From: Botryllus schlosseri
Taxonomy: Eukaryota
Reading direction: 5' to 3'
Assembly: GCA_051294905.1 (NCBI GenBank)
Contig: CM119371.1
Span: forward strand, 17,920,001 to 17,984,000
DNA: 64,000 bases
Part shown: in pieces, positions 248-48,025 of the stretch
Layout of the letters: every line of letters starts with the position of its first letter
Position numbering within the stretch: position 1 is the stretch's first letter
Notes under the pieces: model-generated
Database searches by the model: none
The model's input: the letters and a program-made list of their open reading frames with translations, nothing else
What the model was told of the DNA's origin: nothing
Program-made: the position numbers and the translations under genes

Positions 248-512
248 TCATTCGGCGACTATTCTGCCGTTGGGGTCCAAACGAAGATTATTTTGCAGAC
301 AATCAGAATTATCTTTTTCCGCCCATAACTTACGAACGGACACTGACATTGGTCGCTTGGGTGGCCCTGTGATAGGGAAATCTGTTTTGTTGAGGTCCCG
401 ATATGAAACTTTGTATGCATCGTCAAGGCGAATTCCGTGCAGAAAACGGCATATTTGACAATGGTGATATCTTCTCTTATAATGCGGGTGGTGTCGCCTT
501 TCGGTCCGCCAT
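248..512 (-). CDS. Fucosyltransferase copy 1, terminal coding exon 6
   Basis: ttttccag|A TGG CGG gives YFRWR..., then CQICRFLH, stop TGA at 248-250. Spliced CDS is 1266 nt = 421 aa plus stop. Confidence 0.9.
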
Positions 513-4559: not shown

Positions 4560-4676
4560 CGATAGGTTAGTGACGCGTTGAATCCTATTTGATCAGCCTG
4601 TTGTAACCAGCTGCTCCGAGACATATACGGTGGTGCCTCTGCGCAAAGCCATATCCAGTATTGATTAGGATTCCGT
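4560..4676 (-). CDS. Fucosyltransferase copy 1, coding exon 4
   Basis: tttcag|A...CG|gtaaga; 117 nt, RNPNQYWIWLCAEAPPY...FNASLTYR (GT10 Q.W.W...E.P and FN..MTYR motifs). Confidence 0.9.
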
Positions 4677-6290: not shown

Positions 6291-6937
6291 ATTTATAACA
6301 ATGCTTTAGTTTAAACGACGACTCAATCACAACCGTCTGTTCCGCGACGTAATGAAGAATTGAACGAGCGAAATCTTTAATATATACAGAGAACTAAACT
6401 TGCTGAATGATAGTTGTTTGTTTATTGGTATTCATGGCGCTTGTCGACTACTATGGTCATTTACACAGGGCAAATATTCTTCATTTTTTTCCCGTAACTG
6501 CCGACTTGCAGCGCGGCCCACTTCTAGGCTTTTTGCAAGACACCGCTAGCGCGGATGAGATGGTGAAGAGGAGCCTAGATAAACCCCCAACACTTAGGTA
6601 GGAATTCTGGAGTCGACCTCGGCCGTACTCGAACCCTCAAGCCATTGGTGCTGCAGCTGCGGATTACACCACTACGCTATCTCGCAACACGTCGATTGAT
6701 AGTAATGATAGGCTCAAATCGGCTCCGAATTGAAACACAGAATTTACGAAATCCTGTTCAGTCGGTATCAAGTCAAGGGGAATATTCGATATGTATCCCG
6801 TGAACTGGATTTTTGAATTGCGAGGTCACTTATCATCTTTAGGATGTCAATGCACACTTTTTCGGTAAGAGTGCAGGGAAGGTGTGTACCGTGCGACATT
6901 TCACTTCTGGTCCACCGTCAAGCATTTGGTTACTCAC

Positions 6938-7011
6938 TTCACTCGTGGAATATCTTGCAGGTTGGTTCGATCGTAATGAATGATGACGGCCTCCGTTCTA
7001 ATGTCGCTTAT
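6938..7011 (-). CDS. Fucosyltransferase copy 1, coding exon 3
   Basis: ttgcag|ATA...AA|gtgagt; 74 nt, ISDIRTEAVIIHYDRTNLQDIPRV (equivalent to the DAVxFH motif). Phase 0 to phase 2 fits both neighbours. Confidence 0.85.
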
Positions 7012-7455
7012 CTGCAATTATATTGACATAAATGTATGTTGGCGTGCTCTTAACGACATACTACAAGCGGACGTGGATAAATAACAGTAGCAACACTTCT
7101 GGCGGAAGGTTGCGTAGGTAGACAATAAATACGTGGGTGGAAAATAGGTTTAGTAACCAAATTTCCACCATAGCATAATGTGCAAATGATGCCACCTGCG
7201 CTTCTTGGTTGCAAATTTTGCTTCACCACCCATCGCAATTGGCGAAAACGAGTGACATACACCAATTCTTATAATGCAGATGTATACTAGCATTGTTTTT
7301 GCTGTAGTAGGCCTATTCATGTTATTTTTCGATTATATAATGGCCATTTACATAAGGACTACATTCTTTGTTATGATTTCATAGCTGCCGTCTCGTAGCG
7401 ACCTATAGCGACAATAGCGACCCATTTCTACGCTTCTATAAGACTCCGCTTACGC

Positions 7456-8827
7456 CAGTGGTTCTCTACCTTATTGTGTTCTCGTCCCCACCCTCTTTAG
7501 ACCGTCTCTAATCTCAGTGGACACCCCAGTTTTAACTCGATTATCATGCCCATGTGTTTTGTACAAATATTAACTGTATGCTAGTGATTAACAGCAACAA
7601 AATGACTTTTCTTAAAGAAAAAACACGGTACCATTTAGTAGAAAGTGCGGAGACTCTTATTATATTTCAAGCATATTCTGCAGTTGCATTTCCTGTCAAT
7701 CCGTCCGTAGATTTAATATGAACGAGTGCCGAAAATCCATTTCCACAAAGATAGGTGGTGGGGTGGCGGATGTAACAACCACGCGTAACGCTGCCAGGAT
7801 TATAATGACTCGAGTCTTGACTCGGCTCGAGTCCGACTCGAGGCAAGATTTTCTGATGACTCAACTTGACTCGAGTCATTTTCCCAAAATACGGAAATGA
7901 CTCGACTCCACTCGAGTCAATCGGTGTATTGATTCAAATTGGACTCGAGTCATTGCGCATGACTCGAACCAAGTCATATGACTCGAAATCAGACGGCCAA
8001 GACCGGCATTTCATTGTAATTTCGAAGAATAGTAAAGTTACCACACTATTAGGATTTCGTCTATTGGTACTGGTACTCGATAATGCGACCAGAAACTGCT
8101 AAAAGTGAGGAAATTAGTATATTAATAATACGAGCCATTCGATATCACCAAACAGAGCCTTAAAAGTGGGTTTAACAAGCCTGTAACTGGAAACTGAGCA
8201 GTCATCACAATGACTTGGACGCGGACTCGAGTCATAATGCCATGACTCAAACTCTACCCTCTGTTCTCTGACTTGGACTCGGACTTGACTCGGTGGTGAA
8301 TTGAAAATGACTCGACTTGACTCGAGTCAAAAGTATAAAAGTGAGATTGACTTGTGACTCGGAGTCTTGTGACTTGGTTACAACCCTATAACGCTCCCTT
8401 CGGTTGTAATCGCAACATATATATATTGCACCAAAATTGAGACACGTATTTTTAATGAACATATAACGTCCAGCCTAGCCATTGCAATCTAGCAGCTCAT
8501 CTTAAGGATATTCCGTAATAGCGGTAATGTATATTGCAGGAGAAAATGGATTTTTGTAAACAATTTTTTCCAAAACCTCAATAAAACATCTGTACACAGC
8601 AATATGTTTGTATCAATAGGCTATTCGCAATTTGGCAATTAAAATGAATTTGCACAGTAGAATATTTCATCTCAGACTGCCATTCTGTTTATGCGGCTTC
8701 TGAGTCTTTCGCAGTTATGAACCGAAACTGCCTCGTGCTATCTCTAATTAAAAAATAAAATCCAAATTGAGTCATCGATAGTTTTGCAAAATTTTGAGGT
8801 TTCACGGACCCCGGTTGAGAATCAGTG
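7456..8827. mobile_element. hAT non-autonomous element inserted in a SINE; contains a GACTCGAGTC MITE (about 7795-8388)
   Basis: CAGTGGTTCTC...GAGAATCAGTG; TSD GCTTACGC; same family as 56818-58504. Confidence 0.75.
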
Positions 8828-9050
8828 GCTTACGCGGTCCACATGGCGAGGATGGGCCTGTAATATAGATAAACCTCCAACACTATGTCGGACTCGAACC
8901 CGCAACCCATTGGTGTTGCATCTGTGAATCGTACAAGTACACTATTATACAGGGGTGTAGCAGGATCTTGTACCTGTACCACAATTTTGAGCAGCTAAAT
9001 CTCTTGTATTACTCATAACGGATACGAATGGAAACGCCGTACCACAGAGA

Positions 9051-9320
9051 GTGGCGAGATAGCGTAGTGGTATAATCCGCGGCAGCAAGACCAATGGGTG
9101 CGGGTTCGAGTCTATCCGAGGTCGGCACCAGAATTCCTAAGTCAGTGTTGATGGTTTATCTAGGCTCCACCTCGCCACCTCATATGCGTATAGCAGTGTC
9201 TTACAGAGAGCCTAGAAATAGGACATGCTATAAGTCGTCAGTTATGGGGGAAAATTTAGAATATCTGCCTGGAGTAAATGACCATAGTAGTCGAAAATAC
9301 CACAAGACAAAAAAACAAAC
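9051..9320 (+). mobile_element. tRNA-derived SINE family 1 (other copies about 6415-6686 -, 15650-15855 -, 50535-50780 -, 53002-53170 +, 55465-55580 -)
   Basis: A-box TAGCGTAGTGG, B-box GGTTCGAGTC, shared body and AAAC-type tail; multiple dispersed copies. Confidence 0.8.
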
Positions 9321-9738
9321 CGCATCACGACTAAAACAAGGGGCACAACATTGAAATATGCCAATTTGTATTGTCGTGCTAATTGTTAATAACAATTGGC
9401 CCAACGAAGATGCATCGTCATTTAAAGCTTGCCCCAAATTTTCGAAAATACCCTCTCCATCAACTCTACCGGTGAATCTGATCACGTGGGCTGAGAGAGG
9501 ATAAATGTATGATACTAATATGTTAAAATATTATTGACGAAATTCATTACTGAATCTGAAAAAAATTCGCGCTGCACGTGAACATAACAAATGACATACT
9601 ACTCTTGATTTCAGTGCGTATAGTAAGCCGATGTCATTGAATAGATTAGTCCGACGATCGCTACATTTCGGAGGCGAAATAAAATATCAGAAAAGCAGGT
9701 TTGATTAGTTCAACGAGCACGTATGCGGTACTATTGCT

Positions 9739-12180
9739 CAGTGTTGGGATCAAGTTACTATCACTACCTTTGAGTCACGAGTCATCTCGAGTCATTGCAC
9801 ATTTTGACTCGAGTCAAGTCAAGTCAATCGATTTTCGAAGGTGACTCGAGTCAAGTCAAGTCACCGTTTTTGGAGGTGACTTGACTCAAGTCGAGTCAAG
9901 TCAAGTCAAGTCCCGAGTCAAGTCACAATTAAAGTCAAATCGAATTTCGAAGTATGAGTGATGATTCAAAGCCATTACATTTTGCTAAATGTGTGAAAGA
10001 CAGATGAATTGGTCATTTGTCTTGAGTCAAATAACGAATATAAAGTTAAATACACATGCAAAAAGACACTGCATCGCCCACGCACACGTACAACTGCTAT
10101 TAGAATACGTGAGTAGCTGTACAGTTACATGCTACAGTCAGTTATAATCAGCCAAAATATAGGACCGAATACGAAGCCCCGAGAAGTTGAAACAAATTGA
10201 TTTGGTACTATAGCCTACACCAGCGGTTCTCAACTTCGCATGTATGGCGGGCCGCATTTTAACAGCAAAAGACGCTGCGGGCCGCAGAACATCATTACCA
10301 TGTATTTGTGGGCTATTATTACATTTAGGCTACTGCACAGTAGTATACGGGCATTTAGTACATTTTTATGCATTATAAAGAAATATTGGACGGCGTCGTA
10401 AGTTTGCAGTTACTGTTTTCTTTTCGTGATAATACGTATCTTCCATCGGCGCAAGTAAATCCCTTCGTGGATCGTGCATTGTATTCATAGCCAGGTCACC
10501 TTCCAATCGTTCCGGCAGAGAACGGAACACTCTGTTCCAATGCGTGAGCGAGCAAGTATAAAATTACCATAACTTTTTAGTCACAGAGGCCATTATCACT
10601 ATGAGCCCTCAGTGATAAAAGAAGTCTGGCGTTTCGCGGTCATTTCTGAGACAACAAACCAACCCTTCATTCCTTCAATGACTGAAGCCCTGCACCAATA
10701 ATTACAGAATCCAGCTTTCAAGTTGATGTTTTTGCTCGTCCCCTTCCCTCGTTTGTCTTGCCAGCATTTCCTCTGTGAATGTGTCCACTCCGATAAAATG
10801 CACCCAGATAATTAGCGATGAAATGTTTGTAGAGTCGGTGGATTCGTCCAATGCTAGGCTAAAGTATACTCTGCGCGGCAACGTGTTTCAGAACATGCGA
10901 TAAAATAGCGACTGACATTGCTGCTACTTTTCTGGTCACGGTTGAATCAGACAACTGTAGCCTAGAAATTTGTCAAGTGATATTGTCCTTGTTGGTAAAT
11001 TCCGGAAACAGTGAATATTCGAACATTATATTTAAGTTTTATTGAAATCACACCTTCTCTAGCAGATATCTTGGGTTTAGTGATAACCCAATGCCTCTGT
11101 AACGTCGTGGGGAATTTTGACAATGCCTCAAAATATGGATTGCTGGGCTTGCAACGTAACTGGCGATGTTTTTTTTAAGATCAGGCGATATGTATAACTC
11201 CAGAAGAAACTTTCGTGGTATCGTTAAAGCTTCTAGGCTTACGACAATTGTTCTTCGGAAAATATGACACATCCGTTTTCTATCTATATCTGAGATAGCA
11301 AATTTATTGTCCCACGCTGAGCTACAAACCGAATTTTCGCCGTTGAATTTCCCGTTCCTTGTTCCCGTTCCTTGTTCCGTTCCCGTTCCTTGTTTCTGTT
11401 CAACCCATTCGCAGTGAGTCAAAAACTCTTTAAAAGTGTACTACGCAGCGGAATTCACTTAAACCAGAGTCAACACGAATACCGATTCAAAACAATAACA
11501 ATGTATAAACTCGAGCATATCAAGAAACATAGAAAACATCAAATAATGAGTATTCAAACGAACATAGACGGTGCGATAAGAGAGCTAAGCAGCTGAATTG
11601 ATATGTAACAATGCCTTGCCTGTAGGAATTGCGTTCATCTTCACATAATGACAGATGTCGCGGGCCGCAAAGAACCCCTGGCCTACACTATACCCATCTA
11701 CACATCCGTAAGAATTTAAACGCACAGACTATATTTGTTCGATTTAAATCATACATGGTGGTTGGCAATAAAACTTAGCAATGCGCAATGTAAGCATTGA
11801 GCCGTCTATGAAACAGAGACACATTGCGATTAGATTAATCTGCTACTGGTACGACAACGTAAACTGTGATCGTTTCGTTTGCGGTCAATTTATTTGTGAT
11901 GTAACAATGGAGGATCAGTGTAACGTACAATCAGTGACTGATTGATTGCTCTCACAAGTGACACCGGCGTATCTTGAACAATCCGAACATACACAAGATA
12001 CATTGATTTAATCGACACTGTAAACTTAATGACTTGAAATTGACTCGTAAATTTTGTTACGAGTCACGAGTCAATGCAGATTTCTGCAGATCCGAGTCAA
12101 GTCAAGTCAAGTCATTTTTGCAAAGTGACTCGAGTCAAGTCAAGTCATACGAAAAATTGACTCGAGTCATCCCAACATTG
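9739..12180. mobile_element. hAT-type non-autonomous element rich in GACTCGAGTC motifs, with a nested element
   Basis: TIR CAGTGTTGGGAT...ATCCCAACATTG; TSD CTATTGCT. Empty site in duplicate copy 2 near 54083-54090. Confidence 0.85.
10221..11680 (-). mobile_element. hAT (Buster/Charlie/SPIN-like) deletion derivative with a transposase remnant
   Basis: CAGCGGTTCT...AGAACCCCTG; TSD GCCTACAC. Minus strand about 10790-10970 reads ISRLQLSDSTVTRKVAAMS and YFSLALDESTDSTNISSLIIWV. Confidence 0.85.
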
Positions 12181-12224
12181 CTATTGCTAGAGCTCACATA
12201 GTTCTGGGTCCCTGATATACTCAC

Positions 12225-12311
12225 CCATTTGTCTGCATTGCGTACAAGACATCCCCCACATTCTCTGGGCAGATCGACCGCTGGATCCGATGAATTCCAA
12301 GCAAGTATTAT
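12225..12311 (-). CDS. Fucosyltransferase copy 1, coding exon 2
   Basis: tatag|ATA...TGG|gtgagt; 87 nt, IILAWNSSDPAVDLPRECGGCLVRNADKW (GT10 N-domain ILxW...C..C pattern). Conserved in copy 2. Confidence 0.85.
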
Positions 12312-12707
12312 CTATATAGTTGTCAAAATATATAAGAAGAAGTTTTGACTTTCCTCTATCTATATGCGTCCTAGTTATTGTAGCCAGTCATGGTCCATTG
12401 ATGTAGAATTTTATACGAACCTATAGCAGTAAAATATGAGTCATTCGGTAATGAGCATGCAGAGATGTAGAAAAACTGACGGGAGGATTGACTTGACTGC
12501 TGCTCTTTTAGATTAATTAGGTCTATCGTTACACCTCATATTGCCTACTCAGGTTGGTTTGAATATGTGACATTGGTTACTAAACCTGGAAATCGGTTTC
12601 AGCAACAACATACAAATATAAATCAGTGATTCTGAACCTTTCTCGCCTTAACTAACCATAGTTTGCTTCGAGTCTCCAAATTTACATGGAGACTATGGAC
12701 AAATATG

Positions 12708-13051
12708 CAGGGTTACCATACGTCGTCTTTTAAGAGGACTTGTCCTATTTTTTGACTTTTTTGAAAGTGTCCTCGGAGGACGCCCAAATGTCCTCTTTTT
12801 GAGATTTTGCGCTCTTTTTTGAGAATTCTGGTTGAATATAGGGTAAAATGCAACTGAGATACAGTAAATCAGCCCTGAAGTAACGCCCTGGTGGCTATTT
12901 CAGGAGCTGGGCTGGAAAGTTGACTTGTTTAGTGAACCGACCACGAAGTGCAAAAAATTTACCATTTTTTGAGGATTTTTCTCCGGTATTGCAAGTCCTG
13001 AAATTTTGAAAAAGTGTCCTCTTTTCAGGTTTCCAAATTATGTTAACCCTA
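12708..13051. mobile_element. hAT-type MITE (AGGGTTACCATA family)
   Basis: Imperfect TIR, TSD CAAATATG. Relatives near 3355-4460, 47300, 54602 and 58941. Confidence 0.7.
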
Positions 13052-20897: not shown

Positions 20898-22149
20898 GCC
20901 GTATCTCAACGTATCAGATTCCATATCACGGTTAGGATTTAGGCTATTGAAGCAGGAAAATTTCAGGAGATGCAGATATGTGCATCGGGACTATGAATGC
21001 GGACGTCGCATCGGGGAAGTGCAGCAATGAAGAAGTCCGTGCCTGAAATTCCGCAAGTTATTAAGAAGAGATGACGAGCGATGACGCGTGGCATCGATAC
21101 TGCAGATATATACATACCAATGTGGGTGGTTCGTGAAAATTCTCTAGTCTAGTTGTAGTCTGAATCAGAGATGAGCATGGATTACGATTTGGGAACACTG
21201 GATTTGTGAAATGTTGGCGGGTTTTGTTCGGATAAGGATTTGAGATTATTTTATAAATGACTCAGGATTAGGATTGGATTTACCAATTTTCGGAAGATTG
21301 ATGTCCTGTGGCGAATGGTGACAAAGTTTTCGTCCTACCTAAGTTACTTCTGGCATTTGAGCACTCAAAAGCGTATTATTCATTTTACATAATCATAGGC
21401 ATAAGATGTAGGCTTTTTAAGTGGAATTCTAAGTTTGAATCGGATTGGGAATTGGGATTAGAGTTGAAAGCTTCGGATTTGGATTGTATTAGGTCAGGAC
21501 ATATCAAATCCGCTAATTTCCGGTCTGAATGAAGTTGCTTCCTGAAAATAATGGCTGATCCCATATTTATATTAACACTCTCGTCTTTGATTGGAAACCA
21601 CATCTTGTTTAGAGAGCAAAACCATTTTAAAATTAATTTCTGTAACTGTCACACAATGATATATATACAATGATTGGAAATTACCGTGAGCTCTGCGTTT
21701 CAGCGTGTACCAGGTCGCGCTTCATCGCATACACAGTTGTACTGTAAACAAAAGCTTCCTCAGCAATACTTCTTTATGGAACTAGCAATGATAAATGATA
21801 CATTGGGTATATTTATCAGTGAAATACAACGTTAACGTGTTGAATAGTTTTAGAAACGCATTTCTTACTCGCGGCTGGGATTTTTTTCTGATTAAGCTAG
21901 CGGACTACTGCCATATAAACGCGGTCAAGTTAGGTTGAATTTCGCGCGTCCTGCACGTATTGCAAATCCAATTCACACATTGACGACTCACGGTTATACG
22001 CAATCACAATGCAGTAGCCTTGTGACGGCCAACGCGGCGTACATTCACACAGCCGCGGACGTTCAACCACTGTTGCAAGTGACACAACTTTAATTTCAAA
22101 TTGAGGTGTCACTTTTCCATCATATTGGTACATCAATAACATCATATAT

Positions 22150-24370
22150 AAATAAATATCAAGTGGAGGTAGTTTTTAGAGAAGTAATTCTAGTTTTTCT
22201 GAGTACTCGAGTAGGTTTGCCTACTTCCTCGGGTAATTGCTGTGCTTCCATACCACTCACCAAACAACAGCATCACAACTTGGTTTTTGCCAGGGTTATC
22301 TAGATATCCCTGGGTTTTGAATGTATTTGAAAATAGCACCCACATATTCATTGGGTGGTCATTTTGTGGTAGTCATAAAAGCTTCACCCTCCAAAGTCAA
22401 AAGTGACTATTTCCAACTAACTGCGAAAGTCACAGATTTCTATTTTCGCTACTTCTATTTGAACCTGAGTAAATCATTGCAGCAATACTTCAGTAGCAAC
22501 GCTGTATACATCAATCGTCTATGACAAATTGTCGCCTATCCATGATCATTCCACAAAATCCAGGTCGACTTTTCAGGATCCCATCATGTTATGCAAAGTA
22601 ATGAGGAATGATAAAACAAGATACATATACTTAACAGATGTAACATTTACGAATGCAGTACTGAATTTTCAAATCCCTAATTCATGCATATATAAACGAA
22701 ATGATGCATGCATTTGAAAAACAAACATTAATATGCAACGGAACAGAAATAGATCGATTCAAAAGTAACAATGTGGACAACAAAAACAGTTCATGCGTGA
22801 TCTTTTAAGCAATAACAGTGCTAGATATCAATTTTTTTCATCTTCAACTTGAGAAAATTTCCTTCCAAAATGCAATAGTACACTCGCTTTCGTTATCTCA
22901 AAAGTGGCCAATTACGACCTGAATGATGCCTTATCTACTCGTGATGAAATATCCTGCCTTGTTTAGATGTTAACTTGCTCTTGCCCGAATCATTGGTAGG
23001 AAGGGGAACATTTTCTGTAACTGTATATGATATCAAGGTTAAAAGAGCCAGGAGGAGATAACGATGAATTGAATACTAAAACCTTCAATAAATGTCAGTA
23101 TGTCCACACACGTTGGGGCAGGAACTGTAAGCATTTCCCCTGAGCCTACATATGACATTCCTTTAGTGCGTGATAATACCAGCATATTTTGAACTATAAT
23201 TGTCACAGATGTGATTCCCTGGCAAACACAGATTATTCCAGCAATAGTGGCTTTCCCGCATCAATCGATCCGATGGCAGTTCCAGACTGGGAACGAATTG
23301 CACATTTTTCAATATCCTTCAACTTGTTTTAGTATGCAGCCCGTTCTTACTTGCACCCAGTTGGAGGCGGTGTCTGCGTGTTTCATACGAGCACTCTTTT
23401 CTGGTAAATTCAAGGTTGGAATTGTTCAATATACGCCCTGTCAACAAATACATTATAAGACATTAGATACGAAAGTCGTTTTGTCAGTTTTGCCAGTCAA
23501 CCATACCATTGGATCAAAATAAATAGTCATTTATGGTAACAAGTAACTTCTCAACTAACACGTGTGTGTACAATGTACACATTTAGACAAATCTTGCCGG
23601 CTTTCCTGCGAGCTTCTTTCAGGCCCAATATCGTTTTTTAACAATAATCTACACAGCACAAGAAGTCATGGATACGCAGTATTCCAAACATTTTCCGAAT
23701 TTTGAACAACCCTAGTGTACATGTAAAATCAGTGCAAATATATTCCAGTGTAAGATTTTTACAGAGCGGTGTTATATTGCTTGAAGAATAACTTACATCA
23801 AACGGAACATCATGCTGACTACCGGACACCAGTATTATTGCTGCATTATTTCACTCATGCACTTTGTTCTTCGAAATGCCAATTTTCCTTTTCAATGATG
23901 ATTTAAGAGAAGCGAAGAGGTTCCATTCCCCTGACCCGGGAAAAAGTTATAAAGTAGCCTGGTTGCTTTCTATTAGAATGGGTCTCATCGACTTCTAAGG
24001 TTGGCCACCCACCAGCAACAAGATCACTCATATAAGTATCTGAATCAGTAATAATTTTTTAAGCTTTTTCCGCTCATGTACAAATGCAAAAACATAAACA
24101 GCTAGTCAGTACCTGAACATTGCGCATTGGCGGAAGTTTGATTAGACCTTAGTATGTAGTACTGTCTCACTATGCTCGCAAAACTTGTTTGCAATCAACC
24201 AACAAACGAGAAAACAGTGAAATATCTGCCAGCAAAGGTGATAGCAGCACTCCACCACAGTCAACATTACTCAATGAAGTGTATGCAGTCAACCTTATCC
24301 GCGCACACGCTGATTTCGGCGGGAGTAAACCTTACAGCGTTAGGGGGCATGGCAGTTTCCAATCATTGTA
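22150..24370 (-). mobile_element. Highly decayed coding remnant, possibly a YqaJ-nuclease/SWIM ORF of a DNA transposon
   Basis: Minus-strand reading near 22420-22480 gives FTQVQIEVAKIEICDF, resembling the YqaJ Y.QVQ.Q.......CDF motif. Many stops; boundaries not resolved. Confidence 0.3.
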
Positions 24371-24373
24371 TAT

Positions 24374-26783
24374 TAGGGTTGTTCAGAATTGACCGACTTT
24401 CAAAAAGTCCAGGTTTTCAGTCCGATTCCCATGCCTTATACCTTAAAAACATATTCTAGCTACTTTCTTTTGTAACTCGTTCCCTGCATCCGTGTGCACA
24501 TTGAGCTGGAAGAATAGCAGCTGAAAATAGGGGATTCCCCTAAAATCTGAGTGTCACGATTTTACCTAGCCTAGTTAAAGTGACATATAACATGGATTTA
24601 TGCAGCTGTTGCGGTTTGGAGTGCTACAAAACCCCACTATATAAAGCATTCCTAGTTCAGGATATCATTTCCATGTCCCACACTGCCTTAGAACTGCTCA
24701 AAACTACCTAAAACTGATAGTCATTTTGTTGGATCACATATCCTACACCCCTCAAACCTACCTGGCCCTGTTCATCAATTTCCTGGATCCCCATGTGCAA
24801 TAATACAACTGTAAATGTAACATCCACTCACAGCCACATAATAAACATCACAGGAAACGAAAAATTGAGGCAAAGAAAGAGATCAACTTGGCAAAATATT
24901 ACATAAATCAGGTGGATGAAATGGTTGATTTCGAGAAATCTGCATATCTGTTCCGGTGATCTTCCAAAGCTTGTAGGAGGCTCGCTTGCTGTTTTTTGTC
25001 ATCCGTTATGAACGCAGCATAGTCGGTATTCAATTTTACCATACGCTCTGCTGCATCATTAACTACTTCAACAGTATTCACAAATTCTTGAGCAGTCACG
25101 AAATCCGGATCAGTATGCCATTCCGAAACTGGAAGACTCAACCAATCATATTCCACAAGTATAGCATCAAATAGAAACCACGATTCTAGCCCAATCAAAT
25201 CGACCATACTCATTGACTCAGAGACAGAGTCAGAGATCATACTGAGAGGCATAGGCTACCTCTGCGAAATTTTTCAGGGATTGGCATTTTCAGCAATTTA
25301 ACAGCCATCGCTTCCTTCAGTTTGTCAGGAATCTTTGGATTAGCCGAGAAGGTGGTAAATACCACCATTTCCTTAGTTAAATACCAATGATGTTTTCGCA
25401 ATTTCTTGTATGCCGCATCAGTTTTTCATGTCATGAAGGAATTTGAGATCATTCCAAGGTGCGTCACATGCAATACCAGTTTTCAACCAAGCTGGAACAT
25501 AAAACAAAGCAATGAATGTATTGATTCGTTCCAACTTTTCAATGAACTCTTCAGAATAGTCCATTTGCTCACTCCACATGAACATTTTTGACAGTACAGG
25601 ACTTGACTCAACATATTTGTCATCCAAAATCGCCAAGGTGCCTGTTGCACATTCTCTGTAGTCATCTCTTATCAAGGCTTCTTTCTGCTTTCCATCATTG
25701 GGTTTCATCAGTGGAATTGTATATTGCTTTGCTTCATCAGCTTTCATCGCCAACCAGCTGCCTTCAATAAACTTCAGCGTTTTATAGCTTCTTGATTTAT
25801 CAATATGTTTCCACTTCTTCTTGAAGGTACTAAAATCCGTGTTTTCGGGGCCTGTGGTTGTAGATCCAAACAAACACTTCCAAACCTCTCGAATGACCTG
25901 TTCATACATATGATGACGACAGGCATTGTAGAAAACTTTCCTGTTAATCAATTCTTCAAGTAACGGAACCGCACCTTTGTTTTTACCAGTGCTTGAGGAT
26001 GTTGTGTCAAACACAAGAGCTCTAACAGATTTTGTTAAATTCCAAAGTTCCAGCAGTTCAAATGATGCATCAGCCTGTGCTTTTCCTGTAGCACTTTAAT
26101 GATGCAGCAGAGCGTATGGTAAAATTGAATACCGACTATGCTGCGTTCATAACGGATGACAAAAAACAGCAAGCGAGCCTCCTACAAGCTTTGGAAGATC
26201 ACCGGAACAGATATGCAGATTTCTCGAAATCAACCATTTCATCCACCTGATTTATGTAATATTTTGCCAAGTTGATCTCTTTCTTTGCCTCAATTTTTCG
26301 TTTCCTGTGATGTTTATTATGTGGCTGTGAGTGGATGTTACATTTACAGTTGTATTATTGCACATGGGGATCCAGGAAATTGATGAACAGGGCCGGGTAG
26401 GTTTGAGGGGTGTAGGATATGTGATCCAACAAAATGACTATCAGTTTTAGGTAGTTTTGAGCAGTTCTAAGGCAGTGTGGGACATGGAAATGATATCCTG
26501 AACTAGGAATGCTTTATATAGTGGGGTTTTGTAGCACTCCAAACCGCAACAGCTGCATAAATCCATGTTATATGTCACTTTAACTAGGCTAGGTAAAATC
26601 GTGACACTCAGATTTTAGGGGAATCCCCTATTTTCAGCTGCTATTCTTCAGCTCAATGTGCACACGGATGCAGGGAACGAGTTACAAAAGAAAGTAGCTA
26701 GAATATGTTTTTAAGGTATAAGGCATGGGAATCGGACTGAAAACCTGGACTTTTTGAAAGTCGGTCAATTCTGAACAACCCTA
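24374..26783 (-). mobile_element. hAT-superfamily (hATm-like) element with ~690-bp inverted arms and a truncated transposase
   Basis: Ends TAGGGTTGTTCAG...CTGAACAACCCTA; 8-bp TSD TTGTATAT (24366-24373, 26784-26791). Transposase motifs FDTTSSSTG, ACRHH, HWYLTKE, VVNDAAERMVKL. Confidence 0.88.
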
Positions 26784-29700
26784 TTGTATATATATCATTG
26801 CTGTCACAGCACTTCAGGTACATGCAGTTGAGAACATCCCGTCCGATTTTCAAGTGCTTGAATTCGGAGTCATAGCACCTTGATAAACTTGAATCTCTGT
26901 GACCCCAAATGCTACATAGGCTACCGCACATACTAGGAAAACGTCCACTTATTATGTCACTAGCAGTCTTGTTGGTAACGTAATGACGTCGTACTTTATC
27001 TATTGACCCCTCCAATACATGATTACGTCACAAAGTCACAATTCATGAATTTGAGCGCGAGAATACCTTTTGCGAATTTTCAAGCAGACGGCGGATGTCA
27101 CAAACACAAAACTATTATGGATAGAAAGGTATATATTGCACATAAATCGTAACCATTGATACCTGCCGAAGAAAAAAATCTTCAGAGGTGGTCAAGTAGC
27201 CTACTCATAATTCGCTATTATGTAGAACTAGACGTACAAGAAACCTATATAAGAAAATTATAAGTAGTGATTTCCAAATATTCCAGGCGTCGTTTTCATA
27301 TACCACAACTGAGTAGAAGTGGAAATAACGCTAAAGCACTCACCACCTGAACGAGAAGTTCAAGTAGGCAAAACCTACTGGAGTACTTCAAAAAGGTACA
27401 AATATACTTCGCTACTGACAACCCCTGAAAATTACTTACGCCGACAGAATATTTTGGTAATTAGACATAAACAGTCCGAATAAAGAATTGGATTTAGAGC
27501 GCTGTTGATGGGGAGCAGCCCAACGGCCGACACAGTGTACGCAGTGCTCGAAATATCAAACCCGAACAAATGCTTGAACCCGAGTACACATAGAGGAACC
27601 CAGCATACGCAATCGGTGGCCACCAACAGAAATATGCGAGCCTGCATTTTCTGTATTTCGTTACGTCTCTTGATAAGTGTTTTACTCGTGTTCGATGTTT
27701 CGCTTCTCGTGTAGCGAGTGTATTTTCGTGACTTCCAAAACTTCTGCGAGCTGACAGTGGGCAGTCTACTGTTCCTATTCGTAGGTGTATTGTCGGGGCA
27801 CTTTTTCGACGGGCCGCGTTGAATAACCCTGCTGCTCTTCGACAGCTTGTATATGATGAGATACGCCGCGAAAATGTACCTAAAAGCCGCTAGATTTATC
27901 GATGAAAACACAGTGGTGTGCTTCCAAGACGAGTCTCCAATCGAGGCGAAAAGTGTCGGCAGGCAAACGCTGTGCGCGCTGTAAAAGCCGAAATATTTCC
28001 ACTTCGAATACGAGGGAAACAATTCCGCGGATAATCCCTCTAGCTCACCCCAGGACATATCGTTTTGTGAAACTCCGAATCCCGTAGAATTGTTTGAAAA
28101 CGCGATAGTCCTCAACAAAATGTCGTTGGCAGTCGTGCGGTTTACGACAGGCGGGCGTACGTGAGGCAAAGTTATCCAAGCTTCCGTGGCGTACGAATAC
28201 GCGGTGCCGGGCAAAACCGGGACAATCGCAATTAAGAGTGATAAGACCCAGATCGCGACGCACACTGCCGCCAGCACTTTCAGCCGTTTCAAAATCCGCA
28301 GTCCGAACGGCTTAACAACAGTCGCCAGGCGTAAAGTCGTCAAACCCCGAGAATCAGTACAGAAGTTTGGCTAGATAAAACCACTATCACACCGAGAGTC
28401 TGGCAGAGACAACTGGTCCTCCAAGCTCTGTCATGCTCCCATTAGTTTGAAGTCTTTGACAGCGACACGATTCCCAAAATTATCAGGTAGACCCCATCAA
28501 AAAGTCGGCCGTGGCGGGGTTCAAAATGAACACGCTGCCCCATATTCTAATCGACTTTTTCCACCCGCTCGGTACGCTCCTAGTCTTAACTTTACGAGAG
28601 ATATCATAAGCCTTGAAGCGGATGTGACATTCAGCTAATCGTGGTCGAGTTGATGAAGTCAGAGACATAGCCAGCGAACGTAACTTAGTCCAGGGGTGAA
28701 TGCGATGAAGCGTTAACAGTGACTGTAGGGTTTTGACGATTACCATTGAGTTTCCAAATATCGCAAATATTCCCACCAGCCACATAAAAGTCAAAACATA
28801 CCATCTTTCACTATTCTGTCCTTGGAGGCGAAAGACCATTTCCGCTGTTTGATTGCGAACCATTCGTCACTCGCGTCTTCGAATCGCTCACTCCGTCCGA
28901 TATTGCCGACGAATTCACGTAAAGAGGACTGCCGGAATGGCAGTAAAACCTCCGCGGGCACACCATCTCGTCAACGCCACCGGGACAGTCGATTTTATGA
29001 TCGCATATCAGGGACCTGGTCAGGGATTGATTGATTGATTCCGTGTCTAAGTACAGGATTGATTTGGCTGAGAAAAAGACGGAGAAATTTGGCGTAACTG
29101 CCGCGGCCAAGGCTCACTTCGTGATCGCCTTAATTCGAGATCATTCATCTACTGATTCATGGCTAGTCTGGAATTGTATTTGAATCCTGTGGACTTTGCT
29201 GTCTCAATAAATGAGTAGACACCAATTCTCAGAGATTCATATGTCTCGACAACTTTCGTAGCATTGTTGGACTTGTGTTTCTTTGGCCTTTCTTTACTGC
29301 TTCGCAGTCTGTCCTTCATATCTATTTCTCAGTACATTTCGTCCTCGCCTTCCTGACATTGGCGCACCCGGTCGCAAATCTCAATCGGGCTCACACACAT
29401 TTTGTATTTGTTAGATTGATTCGAGATACTGCGCTCCAGATAAAGAGATACACTGTAAATATTTTAGTGTCTTTAAAAGCATAAAAGATATCACGTTTCA
29501 TGTTCAAAAAGATATCACAATAAAATGTGCTTGATGCTGTGTATATTGTGATTTAAGATTTATGTGCTTTATATATAGTGCTTCATGATTCAAGCGCTAT
29601 CTGAGCTGTGCTACGGCTTGATATGGATTACTAAATAATCTGGCGTACTCGACGACTTATCCTGTTCGAAACCAGCAATATATGAACATTTTACTATAAA

Positions 29701-30485
29701 CGAAACAAGTGATGTGCATGCTTTCAACAAAACATGTTATCAAAAAAATGCACTTGTAGACATTAAACGAAATTTACAAATCTTGCACATCCTGAATGTA
29801 TAGCATAGAGGCCAAGATTGAAGAACAAACTTGTAAATTAACGGGCTAAGCAGCACTGAACTATTTGACAATACTTCCATTATGTCATGTGAAGTCATGC
29901 CAGACGTAGAACTTCAGAGGTGCAAATAAGTTATAGTACTTACTGATATCTAGATGTCATGGCCAAAGTGGGAACAAGTATAGACAAAAGATAAGGGACA
30001 CCGAACCATCAAGTTCCTGGGATACTTTCCATACTAGATTGCTTGTACAAGCCAGCACTAGAACTTCAATAAATACGAGGTGGTGCAAATTCAAAAGTAT
30101 TGACTGCCTTCACAGTTAGATGCCAAGTTAAAAGTAGGAACTAACATAACGAAAAGATAAGCGACACTGCTGGAATATTTGCAATGTCAGATTACTTGAA
30201 CATTATATGGCAAGACATGAGTAGAATTGCCAACTTCAAATGCGAATGGACCAACGAATGATTGTAAAACCTAATGGAATGCTAACAAAGGTCTTCTGCT
30301 GCAGCAGACTGTTCGAATTTATGAAAAAAATCAGATAGTTTGGTGGATACTTATTGATTATTCTTGTCACCGACAACGACATACTGCACGAACTCCAGGA
30401 GCTGGAATTCTTTGGGCTAAGACAGGTCCCAATATAGATATATCGACTTTCCATTAAATAAAAGGGCAAAAGAACATAAAGATAA

Positions 30486-30990
30486 TCAGTTTTGGGCCCT
30501 TGTTAAGCGCCTCCAGCGTGGACGATCGTGGGCGTCTTTGGGCGATAGCCCGCGTTGCGCTAGCTCGTTCTCTATTGTCGAGCGCCATGTGGTTCTATTC
30601 CAGCCACCTCTGCGCCATGGCTCCGTCGGAATGTGGTTGATGATGGCGGCAACTTGTTGATCGTATTGATGCCGCACTAGATGACCGATTAGGCGGAAGC
30701 GTCGTTTAGCAGCCAGCAAACGGCATGGGACCGTTTTTGTGAGTTTGCGCAGTGCATTGGTGGATATGTGCTCCGGGGGGATGGATGCCGAGTGCGTAGC
30801 GGAGGAGTACATCGTAGTTGGCGTTGAGCGTCTTAGCCAGCTTTTCTGTCAGCGTGAGTGCTTCTATTCCGTAGAGAAGAGCCCGCTCGACAGTGGCATG
30901 GAAAATGCGGGTCTTGAGCTGAGGTGAGGCACTTGAGTGGAAGAGGCAATGTAGCCGTCTTGTTGCGCCCCAGGCCTTTGCTCGTTTGGC
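30486..30990 (-). mobile_element. 5'-truncated RTE-clade-like LINE fragment (C-terminal region after the RT domain)
   Basis: AW.A...L...K.RIF.A.V...LLYG.E.LTLT...LLR.ALGI...HIS...RR.RL.GH..R...DR.RWR* across one frameshift; GC-richer than its flanks. Confidence 0.75.
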
Positions 30991-31683
30991 CATCAGCCAG
31001 AATCCATCCCTGTATCTTTCCATTTCCATGCTTTGAAACCACCAAATGTGGAGCTTCGGACGTTTTGCTGTTGATGTGAATGTCATGGGCCTGAAAATGT
31101 AGGCAAATTTTTTATTGTAACTACTCCAAACCATTTCGAGGGCCATGGGTTTACCGCCCCTGGTCTGCACAATCATCTGTGTTAACAGAAGGTGCTACGA
31201 AACTCATTGACATTACAACAATAATGCTCACAATAAAAACCTTCTTAAGGTCATCATAGTTATCAAGCTATTGCATGATTTTCAAATCATACATTCGTTA
31301 TAAACTGAAAGTTATATTAATCTTATAAACAAGTACCTGTAGTACTGATAACACAGATATTGCGGTCTTCTTTTTCGAGTTTATTCTTAGATCGGTCTAA
31401 CTTGTGATTGTAATTGTTGCAGCTTCACTTCATCAGTATTGGACTGAAAACATTGAATAATTGAGGGGTTATTATCAATCAAATTTAATTCAGAATGGAA
31501 TTGCGAGTTCGCATTTACCTCAAATATCTTATCCAATATGAGCATCATTCTTTCGTAGTATGTTCTGATCTCTTCAACTGTGGTTGGTGCGATCAAATTC
31601 CAGTTATCTTCCCTTACCTGTAAGAGAATGTATGTGTCTAAGAATGATTAGAATATGATCAGATCTATGAATATATTCATACA

Positions 31684-32396
31684 ACGGGGTTGTAATGACT
31701 CGAGTCATGACTCGATTCGAGTCGAACTCGAGTCACGATTTTCTGATGACTCGACTTGACTCGAGTCAATATGTGTATCGACTTGACTTGAACAATGTAG
31801 CTGTAAGCTTCGATCACTTTGTTTGCGGTCAATCTATTTGTGAGAGAACAATCGAGGCTAAGTGAAACGACCATTGAATGATTGGTCACTTTCAAGGGTT
31901 ACACCAGCGTTTCGCGAACCATTCGAGCATATGCAAGATACAGTGATAAATATAGACACCGATTACTTGATGACTTGAAATTGGCTAGTGAATTTTGCTC
32001 ACGAGTCACGAGTCAATCCGCATTTCTGATACGCCGAGTCAAGTCAAGTCATTTTAGCAAAGTGACTCGAGTCAAGTCATGACTCTAGTCATCCCAACAC
32101 TGCAAGATACTATTAAAAGTGAGGAAAATTAGTATATCATAAATGCGAACCATTCGATATCACCAAACAGAGTTATAACAGTGGGTTTAACAAGACTTTA
32201 TCAGGAAACTGAGCAGTCAACACAATGACTCAGACTCGGACTTGAGTCATAATTCCCATGACTCGGACTCGAACATCTGCTTGATGACTTTGACTCAATG
32301 GTGGCAATTGAAAATGACTCGACTGGACTCGAGTCAAAATTAAAAAAGTGACATTGACTTGCGACTCGGAGTCTTGTGACTTGGTTACAACCCTGC
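31684..32396. mobile_element. GACTCGAGTC-family MITE with a related nested fragment, inside the EnSpm-like element
   Basis: Ends GGGTTGTAATGACTCGAG...GGTTACAACCCTG match 7795-8388, 37253-39047 and 43146 onward. Confidence 0.7.
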
Positions 32397-34676
32397 CATA
32401 CACATACAGTGAAGAAACAGCCTTGGCACATAACCTCTATAACAAAGCAATAAGAAGTTGTCATAATTGCATGCATACTCACTAGTCTGATGTCGCCCAT
32501 GGTAGGGAACGTTCCAAGAAATCTCTTTCTTCGTTAGCTGAGAACGCCGGAGTCCGTATTGATGCTTGAATGGAGACAAGCCTTTGTGCCGATTGCGGTC
32601 TACATAAGCTGTGCGAGTGTACGTGATTCGAGCGCTTGCTGAACTTTGAAGCTGAATACCAGCAAGGGCATCGGAGGAACGAGTTCAGGGTCTTTGGGAC
32701 TGCACGACGGCTGCAATATTGATGGAAATATAAGATAGAATCTTACTAGAATTATGCGGATAAATACCATAACATCCAAATGGAGATCTGCATTGGTTGC
32801 TCCGGCATCTCCCCGAGATATGAGCTGCAGACACAGACAGTTTAGCTCAATTCATAGCAAAATTTCACAAAATAATGATTACTGGTATTGGCGTGGCTGA
32901 AGGTCCTATATCCTCCCGGACTGATGGCTTTATGGGTAGGGTGGTATCTGACTGCGCGAGTGATTCTACATCGATACGGAGCGACTCATCCACAGGCAAC
33001 GTGGTGTCCGACTCTGCAAGTGACGCTGATTCACCGCACGGATAGTTTGGGTCTGCGACTGAGAAAGATTCATGGCGTGTATTGTCTGGACCTCCATTAG
33101 TTGCTAGTTCCTCCCATAACTGTAACAACAAGATTTAGTTGCATGAACGGAGCTTCCATAGTTAATTAGCTCGTACTTCTTGCAGTCTCAACAGACGCCA
33201 GACGGTACGTCATTTGCCAAAGGTCTTTATCACGAAGCTTGGTGAAAATATCCGAATCTAAGTCATTCTCTGAGATATGAAATAATTTTGAACATAACAT
33301 TAATTGACAGAGCTTGCATGTATAAATCAGACTTGACGTTTCAGCAGATGTTTTGTAAGCCGATCTGAACTCCCAACAAAGGAGCACAACCAATAACAAG
33401 ACTGTCCGTTAGACATTTATCAAAAGTACACGCTAATAATAACCTAAGCTGCATAGTAACCATTCTAATAGATCACAATTGTCACCAGCATTCAACCAAC
33501 TCCACACAAGATGTACTGAATATAACTGCACAAGCTGCCTCGATTAGCTAGTTAACAGGGCACATTGCTGAAGCTATATTACATATATACTTACCTTCCA
33601 ATTTCTGGACGTGCTGCCATGAAATACCGTTACTCGCCAAGAAAGCTTCAAAATCCGCATGCTGATTCCCTGTCATCGCGATCACACCACATCGCAAAAG
33701 AGCAAGAAACGGCCGAAAAAAGAGGAAGTTTAAGAACAGCACTAAAGGTCACTCCCGGTCGTGGCGCTTTAGCACGATATTGTGCTGCCACAAGCGGCAG
33801 ATTTGGCGATTGCGCTTTATCTCATTTACAGTGTAGATGAAGAGCACAGGATGTCTTTGGGCTTGCATACATCGCACGGAGAAATGTCTGTACCGTTGTC
33901 CCACGTGAGCACTCTGCTTATCCCAGGTATGCACGCTCCGTTGAGGAAATCCAATGCGTTTCCCGGCGTTCGCAAATTCCCAAAGATATCGCGCAAGCTT
34001 TGTGCTTTACCGCGTCTGTTCCATTTACGAAATGTGCTGTTTCGTGACCGTAATACGTCCAAGCCCATGCTTATCACGTTGTTCATTTTCGGGTGGGTCA
34101 TAGTGCATAGGTATTCGTCGGATATGTCTGGGCAATGAAATTTGCCATCGCATACGTGCCTTTTCGCAATTGGGCGCGAAGTAGAGATGCAATACGCGGT
34201 GTCCGCGGCATTATTCCCCATATCTCTGGCGTCACTACGGGGCGGGATTTTGCACTGGTGCTTTTCGTTGCAAAGAGGAAGGTGCGGTCTCACGAATCGA
34301 TTCATTGGCCTCGACTCTGTTACGGTAAAGCAGTGTTGGTAATATCATATCTTGGTTGTATCTTCTACAGGATGGGCAAAATAGATTATTTGGTTGACTC
34401 GATTCCAATGCGAGTTGAATATTCGCGCATCACTCATTAAAACCATTCAGAAATATGGAAGAAATGGAAAGTTGAAATAAATATCTACTATGTGACCTCA
34501 AAGATACTGATGTCAGTTCTAAACGTATGGGCTAATGAAATCCTAAAACTTTTCCACTACGCCTATTCGATTATACTTTATGAAAATGCTGTGTGTTGAT
34601 CTGGACTGCAAAAAATATCATCATAAGTAACGTGCTCATAGCTTTGTACTACATGCTTTGGGTGCTGTGTTACGAC

Positions 34677-39314: not shown

Positions 39315-39650
39315 GTAAGAGATTGACTCTGATTGTGGATGATACAGTGAAAAGGTTACCGGTAAATTCGGCACTTCACAGACCAAACCACCGATATCAA
39401 TCGCCCCAACCGCTAATGCATAAACCAAACCCTCATCTCCAGCTGAATGTTTTGACTCGTACATGCTAACACACTGCCAAATTCACCACAATTCACGCTC
39501 ATATTTAAATGAAACATCAATTTTCTAATTCATTTATACAATATTGATGCATTGATTTCACCGAAACAAATATAGGTTTAACACTTCTAATGCCAAATTC
39601 ACCAAGTGCATTAATCATTGTAATCCTGACAACACTATGAATCGTTACAG

Positions 39651-40705
39651 AGTCGAGGCCAATGAACCTAGTCGGAATAACGGCGATTCCGATTTGCAAA
39701 AACAACCAAACATCGACGCGCGGGGATGAGGGAGACACCACGAATAAAATTGCTAACGAAGTGTATTGTATCTCGACTCTGGCCCCAATACCGAAGAGTC
39801 AGGTAAGCGACGGAATATTCAATTGTCGCGACCTATCTGACGAATACCTTTGCACGCTTACCAATCCGGAAACGGATACCTGGAGGAACGAGCACGTGGA
39901 CTCGCGGCCCCTCTCCCTGCCCCCAAACGTCACTTTTCTTGAATGGCAGAAACACCGTAAAGCGCAGAGCGTACGAGAAATCTTGCGAACGCCGGAGAAC
40001 GCCTTAGATTTTCCCAACAGAGCTTGCATACCGGGGATACACAACGAGCTGTTGCGGAAGGATGGTACAACTGTATCGCCATGCGATGTATGCCAGCCCA
40101 AAGAAATCCTTTGCCCGACATCGATCTTAGATATGGAGCACGGTATCGCTAAAAATAATCAATCTGGACAATACAAAATGTGCGTGAACTACATTGAGGT
40201 GTGCGACCGGGTGCAGCAATGCCCGCAGTGTGAGGACGAAATATATTGCCAAATGGATATCGAGCATAGACTGCGAATCATCGCTGAAAAATTAAAGAAA
40301 CGCAAGCCGAAAAACGTTGCTACAGTGGTAGCGACTTGCGAATCTTTAAGAATTGGAATACAATCGTTTCGCGAAGCCGCAAAGTCCAAAAAGGTACATC
40401 ATTGGCCGGGTCAGTCACATCAAATTTCCTCGAGTCTGTTCTCTTCAAAATCAAGTCTTCATTTGAACACCGAATCAAGCAATCAATCCCTGTCCCTGTC
40501 CCTAATATGCGACAGTAGAATCGACTGTCCAGGTGGACTTGACGAGATGGTGTGCCCCCGGAGGTTTTATTGCCAATCGGGCAGTCCTCTGTACGTGACT
40601 TCGTCGGTTATATCGGACGGAGTGAGCGATTGCGATGACGGGAGTGACGAATGGTTCACTATCAAACAACGAAATAGTCTTTCGCGTCCAAGGACAGAAT
40701 GGTGA
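39651..40705 (+). CDS. LDLa-GPCR copy B ectodomain with about 4 LDL-receptor class A-like modules
   Basis: Motifs SDGIFNCRDLSDEYLC, CDRVQQCPQCEDEIYC, CDSRIDCPGGLDEMVC, SDGVSDCDDGSDE; no LxxLxL LRR pattern seen. Confidence 0.8.
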
Positions 40706-42093
40706 AGGATTGGTACGTCCTGACTTTTATGTGGCTGGTGGGAGTATTCGCGATATTCGGAAACTTCATGGTAATCGTGAAAACTCTGCAGTCATTGCTC
40801 AAGCTTCATTGCATTTACCCGTGGACTAAGTTACAAACGCTAGCTATGTCTCTAATATCACCAAATCTACCACGATTAGCTAACAATAACAGCCACTTCA
40901 AGGTTGAAGATAACCCACGCAAAATTAAGACTAGAAGCGTAACGAACGGGCGAACAAAGTCGATTCGTATCTGGCACAGCGTTTTCATACTGAACCTCAC
41001 GACGGCCGACTTTTTAATGGGGTTATATTTGATTATTTTGGGAATCAAATCGTTGTCGACGACTTCAAACTATTGGGAGCACGACAGATCGTGGAGGAGC
41101 AGTGTTCTGTGCCAGTCTCTCGGCGTGATGGTGGTTTTGTCGAGCCAAACCTCGGTACTGACCCTTGTGGGTTTGACGACCCTACGTCTGGCGACTGTCG
41201 CGAAACCATTCGGGCTGCGACTTCTGGAACGGGGGAAAGTGCTGGTTGCGGTGTGCGTCGCAATATGGGTCGTATCACTGTTTATTGCGATTGTCCCGGT
41301 TTTGCCAGGTACCGCGTATTCGTACGCTACGGAAGCTTGGATAACTTTGCCCCACGTACGCCCGCCTGTCGTAAACCGCACGGCTGCCCACGTCATTTTC
41401 CTGAAGACTATCGCGTTTTCAAATAACTCAGTCGGATTCGTTCATCCACCAAACGATATGTCCTGGGGTGAGCTAGAGGAATTATCCGCGGATTTGTTTC
41501 CCTCGGATTCGCATTGGAAATACTTCGGTTTTTACAGCGCGCACAGTGTTTGCCTGCCGACGCTTTTTGTTTCGATTGGAGACGTGGCTTGGAAGCACAC
41601 GGCTGCGTTTCTATCGCTGAATCTAGTCGCTTTTATGTACATCCTCGCCGCGTATGTCATCATATACCGATGGTCGAAAAGAAGCACGAATATTCAACGC
41701 AACGCTGCGGAAGGACGCCCCGAAAGTGTCGTCGAAACACCCGCACATAAACACAAAAAAGTGCCGTCTACAGGTTTTCGGAAGTTTCGAAAATCGCGGA
41801 AAGACAGCCTCTCCGCGAAAAGTGAAAACTCGACCGCAAATAAAATCTCTATTAAAAAACATAGGGATATGCAGAGGATGCAGGTCAGCATATTCCTGCT
41901 GGTATCCACCGATTTCAATTGCTGGATTACAATTTGCGTGCTCGGTTTCATGCATATGTTTGGGTTTGAGATATCGAGCACCGCGTACACCGTGTCGGCC
42001 ATCGGGCTGCTCCTGGTCAACAGCGCGCTAAATCCGATTCTTTATTCGGACTGTTTGTGCGTGATTCCCAAATTGTTCTGCCGCCGTAAGTGA
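40699..42093 (+). CDS. LDLa-GPCR copy B 7TM domain (class A; LGR/RXFP/GRL101-like), out of frame with its ectodomain
   Basis: W..G.FA..GN (TM1), NL..ADFLMGLYL (TM2), W.SS.LC (ECL1), S..SVCLP (ECL2), TDF.CW (TM6), NSALNPILY (TM7). Single long exon. Confidence 0.88.
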   Translation: MVKDWYVLTFMWLVGVFAIFGNFMVIVKTLQSLLKLHCIYPWTKLQTLAMSLISPNLPRLANNNSHFKVEDNPRKIKTRSVTNGRTKSIRIWHSVFILNLTTADFLMGLYLIILGIKSLSTTSNYWEHDRSWRSSVLCQSLGVMVVLSSQTSVLTLVGLTTLRLATVAKPFGLRLLERGKVLVAVCVAIWVVSLFIAIVPVLPGTAYSYATEAWITLPHVRPPVVNRTAAHVIFLKTIAFSNNSVGFVHPPNDMSWGELEELSADLFPSDSHWKYFGFYSAHSVCLPTLFVSIGDVAWKHTAAFLSLNLVAFMYILAAYVIIYRWSKRSTNIQRNAAEGRPESVVETPAHKHKKVPSTGFRKFRKSRKDSLSAKSENSTANKISIKKHRDMQRMQVSIFLLVSTDFNCWITICVLGFMHMFGFEISSTAYTVSAIGLLLVNSALNPILYSDCLCVIPKLFCRRK

Positions 42094-48000: not shown

Positions 48001-48025
48001 TTACTTACGTAAAAGTATATTTCAC

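Follow-up and report, generated by a model that had tools for sequence, protein, structure and literature searches.

Structure of the foldback unit and its target site

The window, the 64-kb stretch of DNA analyzed here, contains a foldback unit of 2,410 bp (24374-26783) in which inverted arms of 689 and 688 nt enclose a spacer of 1,033 nt (Table 1). The arms are reverse complements with exactly two differences, one substitution (24763/26395) and one 1-nt indel (24508/about 26650), and both contain the last 50 codons of a transposase (NDAAERMVKL...TISST*). In the left arm the stop codon lies at 24908-24910. Poly(A) sites of the family mRNA fall at 24818 and 24796 on this arm, and at 26340 and 26362 on the right arm. 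The remnant of the transposase starts at 26095, 28 codons upstream of its FDTT motif, and TTGTATAT stands directly outside both termini. An earlier note on this DNA had described near-identical inverted arms of about 690 bp, the last 50 or so codons in each, a transposase cut upstream of FDTT where the second arm begins, and a perfect 8-bp target-site duplication (TSD) around the whole unit, and these descriptions agree with what we find. The junction is placed by parent-type records, which leave the window sequence after 26097, and by the start of the arm at 26096. The 13-nt stretch resembling the inner start of the arm forms a short natural inverted repeat in the parent, about 35 nt from the join, and is not itself used as the join. 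No further copies of the element were found within the 64-kb window.

Table 1. Coordinates and strands of the parts of the foldback unit, its target site and associated repeats.
Feature	Positions	Strand	Remarks
Left target-site duplication, TTGTATAT	24366..24373	+	Abuts left terminus; single-copy empty-site paralogue at 21654-21680
Left arm, native 3' end: terminus, 3' subterminal region, 3' UTR, last 50 codons	24374..25062	-	
Spacer, decayed C-terminal half of transposase (FDTT, CRHH)	25063..26095	-	
Junction, 2-nt microhomology (TT) between the coding sequence that continues in the parent and the first letters of the copied arm	26096..26097	+	
Right arm, the element's own 3' end, inverted, replacing the 5' half	26096..26783	+	
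Right target-site duplication, TTGTATAT	26784..26791	+	Abuts right terminus 26783
13-nt stretch matching the arm's inner start (26098-26110) at 12/13	26061..26073	+	
Related empty site: left flank, one TTGTATAT, right flank; exact 27-nt copy	21654..21680	-	39/44 over 21646-21688

The duplication has the 8-bp length of the hAT superfamily, and with the base composition of the window a particular 8-mer would stand at a set position by chance with a probability of about 4e-5. The 27-nt copy of the empty site had no match in 100 shuffles, against a background in which, of the 63,974 27-mers that lie off the element, 986 recur exactly. Because it carries a single TTGTATAT between the two flanks, this copy supports a true duplication upon insertion. 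No longer homology surrounds this inverted paralogue of the target site (21646-21688, core 27/27).

The transposase family and its copies in public runs

The remnant, on the minus strand, is without the N-terminal 360 or so codons, including the first catalytic Asp, and compared with other family copies it has indels near 25252, 25419, 25584 and 25610, the last of which deletes a conserved xHxARW stretch. FDTT, CRHH and NDAAER are retained, and the first D (HWDGK) and the ARW stretch are gone; judged from its letters, the window copy cannot be active and would make no transposase. The remnant matches residues of about 360-770 in proteins of 765-821 aa at 39-52% identity. These homologues carry HWDGK, FDTT, CRHH, ARW and NDxAER, which we take to be the hAT catalytic D, D and E together with the CxxH motif and the conserved W.

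One homologue, P0001, is 46% identical to the remnant over 420 columns. The top 10 PDB matches of its predicted model (mean pLDDT 79) are all Hermes, with a best E of 3.1e-7; this fold comparison was run on P0001 and not on the broken protein of the window. A model that folds like Hermes, with its DDE transposase fold and insertion domain, indicates that the element family is hAT-like. No family name was returned by Pfam for three window fragments and 18 alignment members, by a PDB sequence search or by the ESM Atlas, and PF05699, the C-terminal dimerization domain, had no match in the three fragments or in any of the 18 alignment members, likely as a result of divergence. From the TAGGGT termini, the 8-bp TSD and the Hermes-like predicted fold of the homologue, the family is probably hAT of the hATm type. 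Elements of that type end in TAGGGT.../...ACCCTA with an 8-bp TSD, as does the window element, in the available text of Zhang et al. (2018, PMC6004678). When the 3' terminus alone is compared, the TAGGGTT of the window matches the hATm consensus 5'-TAGGGTG...CACCCTA-3' at six of seven bases; it differs in its seventh base, T and not G, and in having no PF05699 match, and hATm-4_CC likewise departs from the consensus at base 7 (PMC6004678, as excerpted). The same excerpts describe autonomous hATm-6 elements with TIRs of 417 and 575 bp, so that the premise of short hAT TIRs, on which the earlier note relied, fails for some hATm, and by our count by eye about 13 of the 28 termini listed there are inverted over nearly all of the 40 nt displayed (PMC6004678). 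The long TIRs of hATm flank an intact gene, whereas the window arm replaces half of one (PMC6004678, in the part available).

The region 25063-27400, which covers the spacer, the junction, one arm and the right flank, was compared with four (X1, X5, X21 and X23) of the 24 runs listed as containing the sequence; no listed run has an RNA label on record. In X1 the summed depth was 36,000-155,000 on the element versus 16-45 in six of seven flank-only bins (187 in the seventh), and in X5 it was 63-200 across most of the element versus 2 in the flank; these summed depths are not copy numbers, and those of X1 are inflated by overlapping short contigs. Poly(A) tails were found in X21 at 26340 (9 reads) and 26362 (16 reads), from family mRNA that is sense and polyadenylated. 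The family is thus abundant and still transcribed. Beyond 26783 the records run into many different sequences, with 27 X1 contigs at 0.41 agreement and 7 X5 contigs at 0.46, and this diversity of flanks makes 26783 the true terminus of the family. Continuity from 25063 into the native arm was present in all four runs, as an opposite-strand joint.

Parent-type records show what lay at the other side of the junction. One X5 contig matches the window with 0 differences over 25994-26097 and then continues for 214 loose nt, and 21 X23 reads match the window to 26097 and then diverge. Read by hand, the continuation encodes GKLLGIQTLE, in frame before SATGKAQA, and fits the GKLLGxQxLE of the homologues. 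Because these records run into ordinary 5' coding sequence at 26097, the 690-nt arm is not native, and the proposal that an inverted 3' end stands in place of the 5' half is borne out by the contig and the reads. The depth of X5 over 26096-26670 was 77, versus 63-67 in long spacer contigs. Since the arm is not at double the depth of the spacer, copies with two 3' ends are a minority in X5, and the undoubled depth speaks against a long native TIR. Past about 26670 the depth in X5 climbs from 77 to 148-189; a native TIR no longer than about 115-135 bp would account for this, as would short MITEs.

That the structure is an assembly artefact, from a foldback read or a mis-join, or else reproduces long native TIRs of the parent, we regard as very improbable, the two taken together. 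Foldback chimeras typically have inverted arms that are nearly perfect, and the exact junction of the window is not among the independent joints listed (16 of 11,965 pieces), one matching contig not being listed as a joint. However, the inversion reaches no further than the family terminus, next to which a direct TSD stands, the right flank continues the left flank in the paralogous empty site, the arms differ at two sites, and a sister junction (below) occurs in independent data. Native TIRs of 400-600 bp are found in some autonomous hATm (PMC6004678, in the text available), but the parent-type records enter 5' coding sequence at 26097 and the X5 depth stays undoubled over 26096-26670.

Several further observations were made on these runs. 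The depth rises steeply over 26701-26783, to 1,020 from about 70 in X5 and to 155,000 from about 55,000 in X1, pointing to many short MITE-like relatives or to other families with the same end. X1 has many different small deletion joints within the arm. X5, which bears another organism label, shows about 97-99% identity to the family and the right flank and is without two of the frame-breaking indels, and its source is likely a close relative with intact copies. In X5, one contig takes in the right flank from 26801 onwards and a further 396 letters that lie off the element; it seems to represent an allele without this end of the element. Searches for the 5' end of the parent gave 0 matches each for DNA patterns in metagenome, genome and viral contigs, and protein-seeded locus searches confirmed 0 of 76 and 0 of 1 candidates.

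Copying of the arm in cis and possible mobility of a two-tailed lineage

The timing of the rearrangement can be read from the variants that separate the window from other family copies. Forty of 198 variants were listed, 12 in the arm, 23 in the spacer and 5 in the flank. All 12 arm variants have the identical letter in both window arms, and for 8 of them at least 95% of the X1 depth carries the other letter. The same holds for 20 of the 23 listed spacer variants (at least 95% of the X1 depth carrying the other letter); the computed spacer set has 21 rows, without the 5 flank rows and without 26066 and 26068, two positions at which the window letter predominates. Given a decay of at least 1-2% from the family and arms only 0.3% apart, the last copying of an arm was recent and in cis. 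On the letters compared, the right arm was demonstrably copied from the element's own left arm after 1-2% decay from the family, and did not come from recombination between two family members. The private letters common to both arms thereby give a clear timing, with the arm copied in cis after the decay. At the level of the letters, the comparisons likewise establish that the 5' half was lost and that a copy of the 3' end, inverted and joined by 2 nt of microhomology, took its position.

Another route to the same symmetry would be an inverted head-to-head dimer, or palindrome, of one copy that was mobilized by its outer 3' ends and in which independent central deletions produced two junctions. 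Such a dimer would predict several junctions in one region, and identical arms if it arose from a single copy; dimer formation plus deletion is the route proposed for Rpmar17/49 by Filée et al. (PMC4678618, in the portion available). We nevertheless hold this origin to be improbable, since the 1,033-nt spacer has 20 listed private substitutions and 4 indels versus 2 differences between the arms. The dimer would have to be very recent and to come from an already decayed copy, and the X1 sisters are without several of the private letters.

We favor instead a copying origin in steps. A break at or near the right end of the element would have left a flank-side end able to prime on the other terminus through the shared terminal sequence; about 690 nt would then have been synthesized before microhomology rejoined the product to the interior, as in abortive gap repair with a template switch. 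Somewhat more loosely, an earlier founder with two 3' ends may have preceded the present copy, its junction persisting in another sample as a joint of 26097 to 26132, and its lineage may have been multiplied in trans by the transposase of the family. A later re-copying from arm to arm would have overshot by about 36 nt, and this would account for both the near-identical arms and the common inner breakpoint. For the whole chain, namely a non-autonomous hAT derivative, probably hATm, with an arm copied in cis and a mobilized founder with two 3' ends, we estimate a probability of about 0.5. The present copy is most likely inert cargo.

The sister junction was found in X1 as a same-strand joint of 26097 to 26132, an inverted junction related but not identical to that of the window; one contig shows the join as direct. 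Compared with the parent, this join was made through 2 nt of microhomology (CC) and lies 2 nt from the inner breakpoint of the window, and the sister arm is 36 nt shorter than the window arm. Six contigs carry it, with a summed depth of 254 (not a copy number) versus 12-45 in flank bins or contigs. Were all six to overlap on one path, the mean depth would be 42, about twice that of a single diploid locus (about 12-22), so that more than one sister copy is likely even with full overlap. The joint occurs in one of the four runs, X1, with a shorter side of 26 nt at a likeness minimum of 90, and short-sided joints in repeats are error-prone. Misalignment of the parent continuation was considered as its source and rejected, as only about 7 of 26 letters agree by eye. 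The residual X1 depth for the window-private letters 26391, 25415, 25677 and 25899 is about zero, so that the very copy in the window was not amplified there. As the simplest account of two junctions with one inner breakpoint, a common founder with two 3' ends is hinted at.

Alternatively, the unit could be a one-off rearrangement in place, in which a full-length insertion with its TSD decayed and then underwent a template-switch foldback, never having moved with two tails. On this view the X1 junction would have arisen separately, at a hotspot of breakage, or would be an allelic variant or an artefact of alignment. Repair in place keeps the TSD, the window-private letters are nearly absent from X1, and the 12/13-nt natural inverted repeat beside the join could form such a hotspot. 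Hermes requires asymmetric ends, and donors carrying two right ends failed to transpose in HEK293T cells (PMC10368747, in the section available), and breakpoints cluster in Rpmar17 with common descent unproven (PMC4678618, in the section available). Set against these points, two independent events would be needed within 2 nt at the inner breakpoint of a multi-kb element, and the summed depth of the six contigs, 254, exceeds that of one diploid locus even with full overlap (about 6 x 22). The long TIRs of the autonomous hATm-6 elements (417 and 575 bp; PMC6004678, as excerpted) also imply that symmetrical ends work within hATm. We therefore consider a one-off event unlikely, though not strongly so, and lean towards mobility of the sublineage with two 3' ends. 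The earlier suggestion that the element transposed as a unit is accordingly only partly upheld, with the related inverted junction of 26097 to 26132 and its multi-copy depth in X1 in its favor. The TSD is uninformative on movement, because it survives rearrangement in place.

Known systems, a possible silencing role and the neighborhood

Replacement of one end, with long secondary TIRs, is already known for mariner in both polarities and is seen here in a hAT-type family; in open-access full text, the scope of the search, we found no hAT element with such an end replacement. Rpmar49 and Rpmar17, mariner elements of Rhodnius prolixus, likewise have an inverted 3' part with transposase coding sequence in place of the 5' part and, like the window element, long secondary TIRs (Filée et al. 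2015, PMC4678618, in the part available). Rpmar49 was amplified, with 13 independent insertions, whereas amplification is only hinted for the window element, and Rpmar17 has several breakpoints clustered in one region, comparable to the two junctions here (PMC4678618, same part). Both belong to Tc1/mariner and not to hAT, Rpmar49 is less than 1 kb with a 221-bp arm versus 2.4 kb with 689-bp arms here, and it is for the window element that private letters common to both arms demonstrate copying in cis (PMC4678618, same part). The mariner MITEs Dromar7/11/28/36 of Drosophila are similar in that one end is the inverted other end and in having unusually long TIRs in amplified non-autonomous lineages, but their polarity is the opposite, the 3' end having been replaced by the 5' end (Wallau et al. 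2014, PMC4161770, in the portion available). In the "recombinant TIR" copies of Galileo in Drosophila mojavensis, non-autonomous copies had a TIR lengthened during break repair by copying past the other TIR, a model that fits the 36-nt overshoot proposed here; Galileo differs in belonging to the P superfamily, in its natively long TIRs and in that most recruited pieces are spacers without coding sequence (Marzo et al. 2013, PMC3573991, in the portion available). Ac is not known to move without one 5' and one 3' end, a requirement for which the open-access search listed no paper. If copies with two 3' ends were confirmed at several loci, this would be a natural hAT-type element that moves with symmetrical right ends, unlike Hermes, and would show how the long TIRs of hATm arise. 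If no second locus were found, the unit would amount to a commonplace accident of repair in a dead transposon.

The most consequential reading, without support so far, is that the locus has a silencing role. Mu killer of maize reportedly is an inverted duplication of part of an element that is transcribed, gives rise to siRNA and silences in trans. By analogy, read-through of the window locus could yield a hairpin RNA matching the 3' end of the transposase mRNA, and from it siRNA. The geometry allows this, since read-through from either flank would cross the antisense arm and end at the poly(A) sites of the sense arm. The predicted fold pairs 688 of the 689 left-arm nt, and as the poly(A) sites lie inside the arm, the predicted stem is 245-267 bp, which is the overlap with the 3' end of the transposase mRNA. 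Ac-killer alleles of maize provide a precedent, being likewise inverted duplications of part of an element that include mRNA-matching sequence (bioRxiv 10.1101/2020.01.07.897926, in the part available). They differ in having a known promoter, siRNA and trans-silencing, and in arising by alternative transposition with flanking rearrangements rather than as a TSD-bounded unit (same preprint, same part). We judge a role of this kind quite improbable at the window locus. The element's own 5' end, with its promoter, is gone; the RNA depth of the right flank is 0-0.95; the GPCR gene that faces the element across 649 nt is broken by several stops and frameshifts; and the family is transcribed in the sampled RNA. 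The window letter at 26191 was present in 0 of 770 RNA reads (71 in X23 and 699 in X21), with 3-6% of the two runs read and with sampled animals that may not carry the allele. A wider speculation, to which we attach equally little probability, is that hATm-type transposases, unlike that of Hermes, move elements with two 3' ends, that re-copying lengthens the arms, and that copies in transcription units produce polyadenylated anti-transposase hairpins. If true, this would be a mobile animal counterpart of Mu killer and Ac killer, and repeated re-copying from arm to arm would explain how some autonomous hATm came by their long symmetrical TIRs.

Other repeats and genes were noted in the window, whose gene content points to an animal host, presumably a marine invertebrate. 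A second terminus of the hATm type, with a match of 16/17, lies on the minus strand, ends at 23714 and is followed by GTGTACAT (23715-23722). This TIR-like end (23698-23714) was considered as the 5' end of the family but left unassigned, as it diverges past 17 nt and has no adjoining transposase 5' coding sequence. About 140 nt to the left of the terminus, a near-palindrome at 23566-23580 consists of GTGTACAT and its inverse, and presumably resembles a hairpin-type hAT excision footprint beside a retained end. The 8-mers beside the two related termini (24366-24373 and 23715-23722) have the common pattern nTGTAnAT, which suggests a target-site preference. A weaker terminus-like 17-mer at 3030-3046 has 3 mismatches and may be due to chance. 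Two rhodopsin-family GPCR genes, at 27426-34324 (minus strand) and 39641-42093 (plus strand), are inverted paralogues of about 79% identity. Cysteine-rich repeats, which we take to be LDL-receptor-like, lie upstream. In the minus-strand copy the coding sequence is interrupted by stops and frameshifts, and about 4.4 kb of repeats at 29421-33836 split the gene. An old segmental duplication pairs 28-12987 with 45732-54864 at 81-90% identity in pieces, and its ORFs at 1962-2519 and 48022-48597 are, by their motifs, presumably fucosyltransferase-like.
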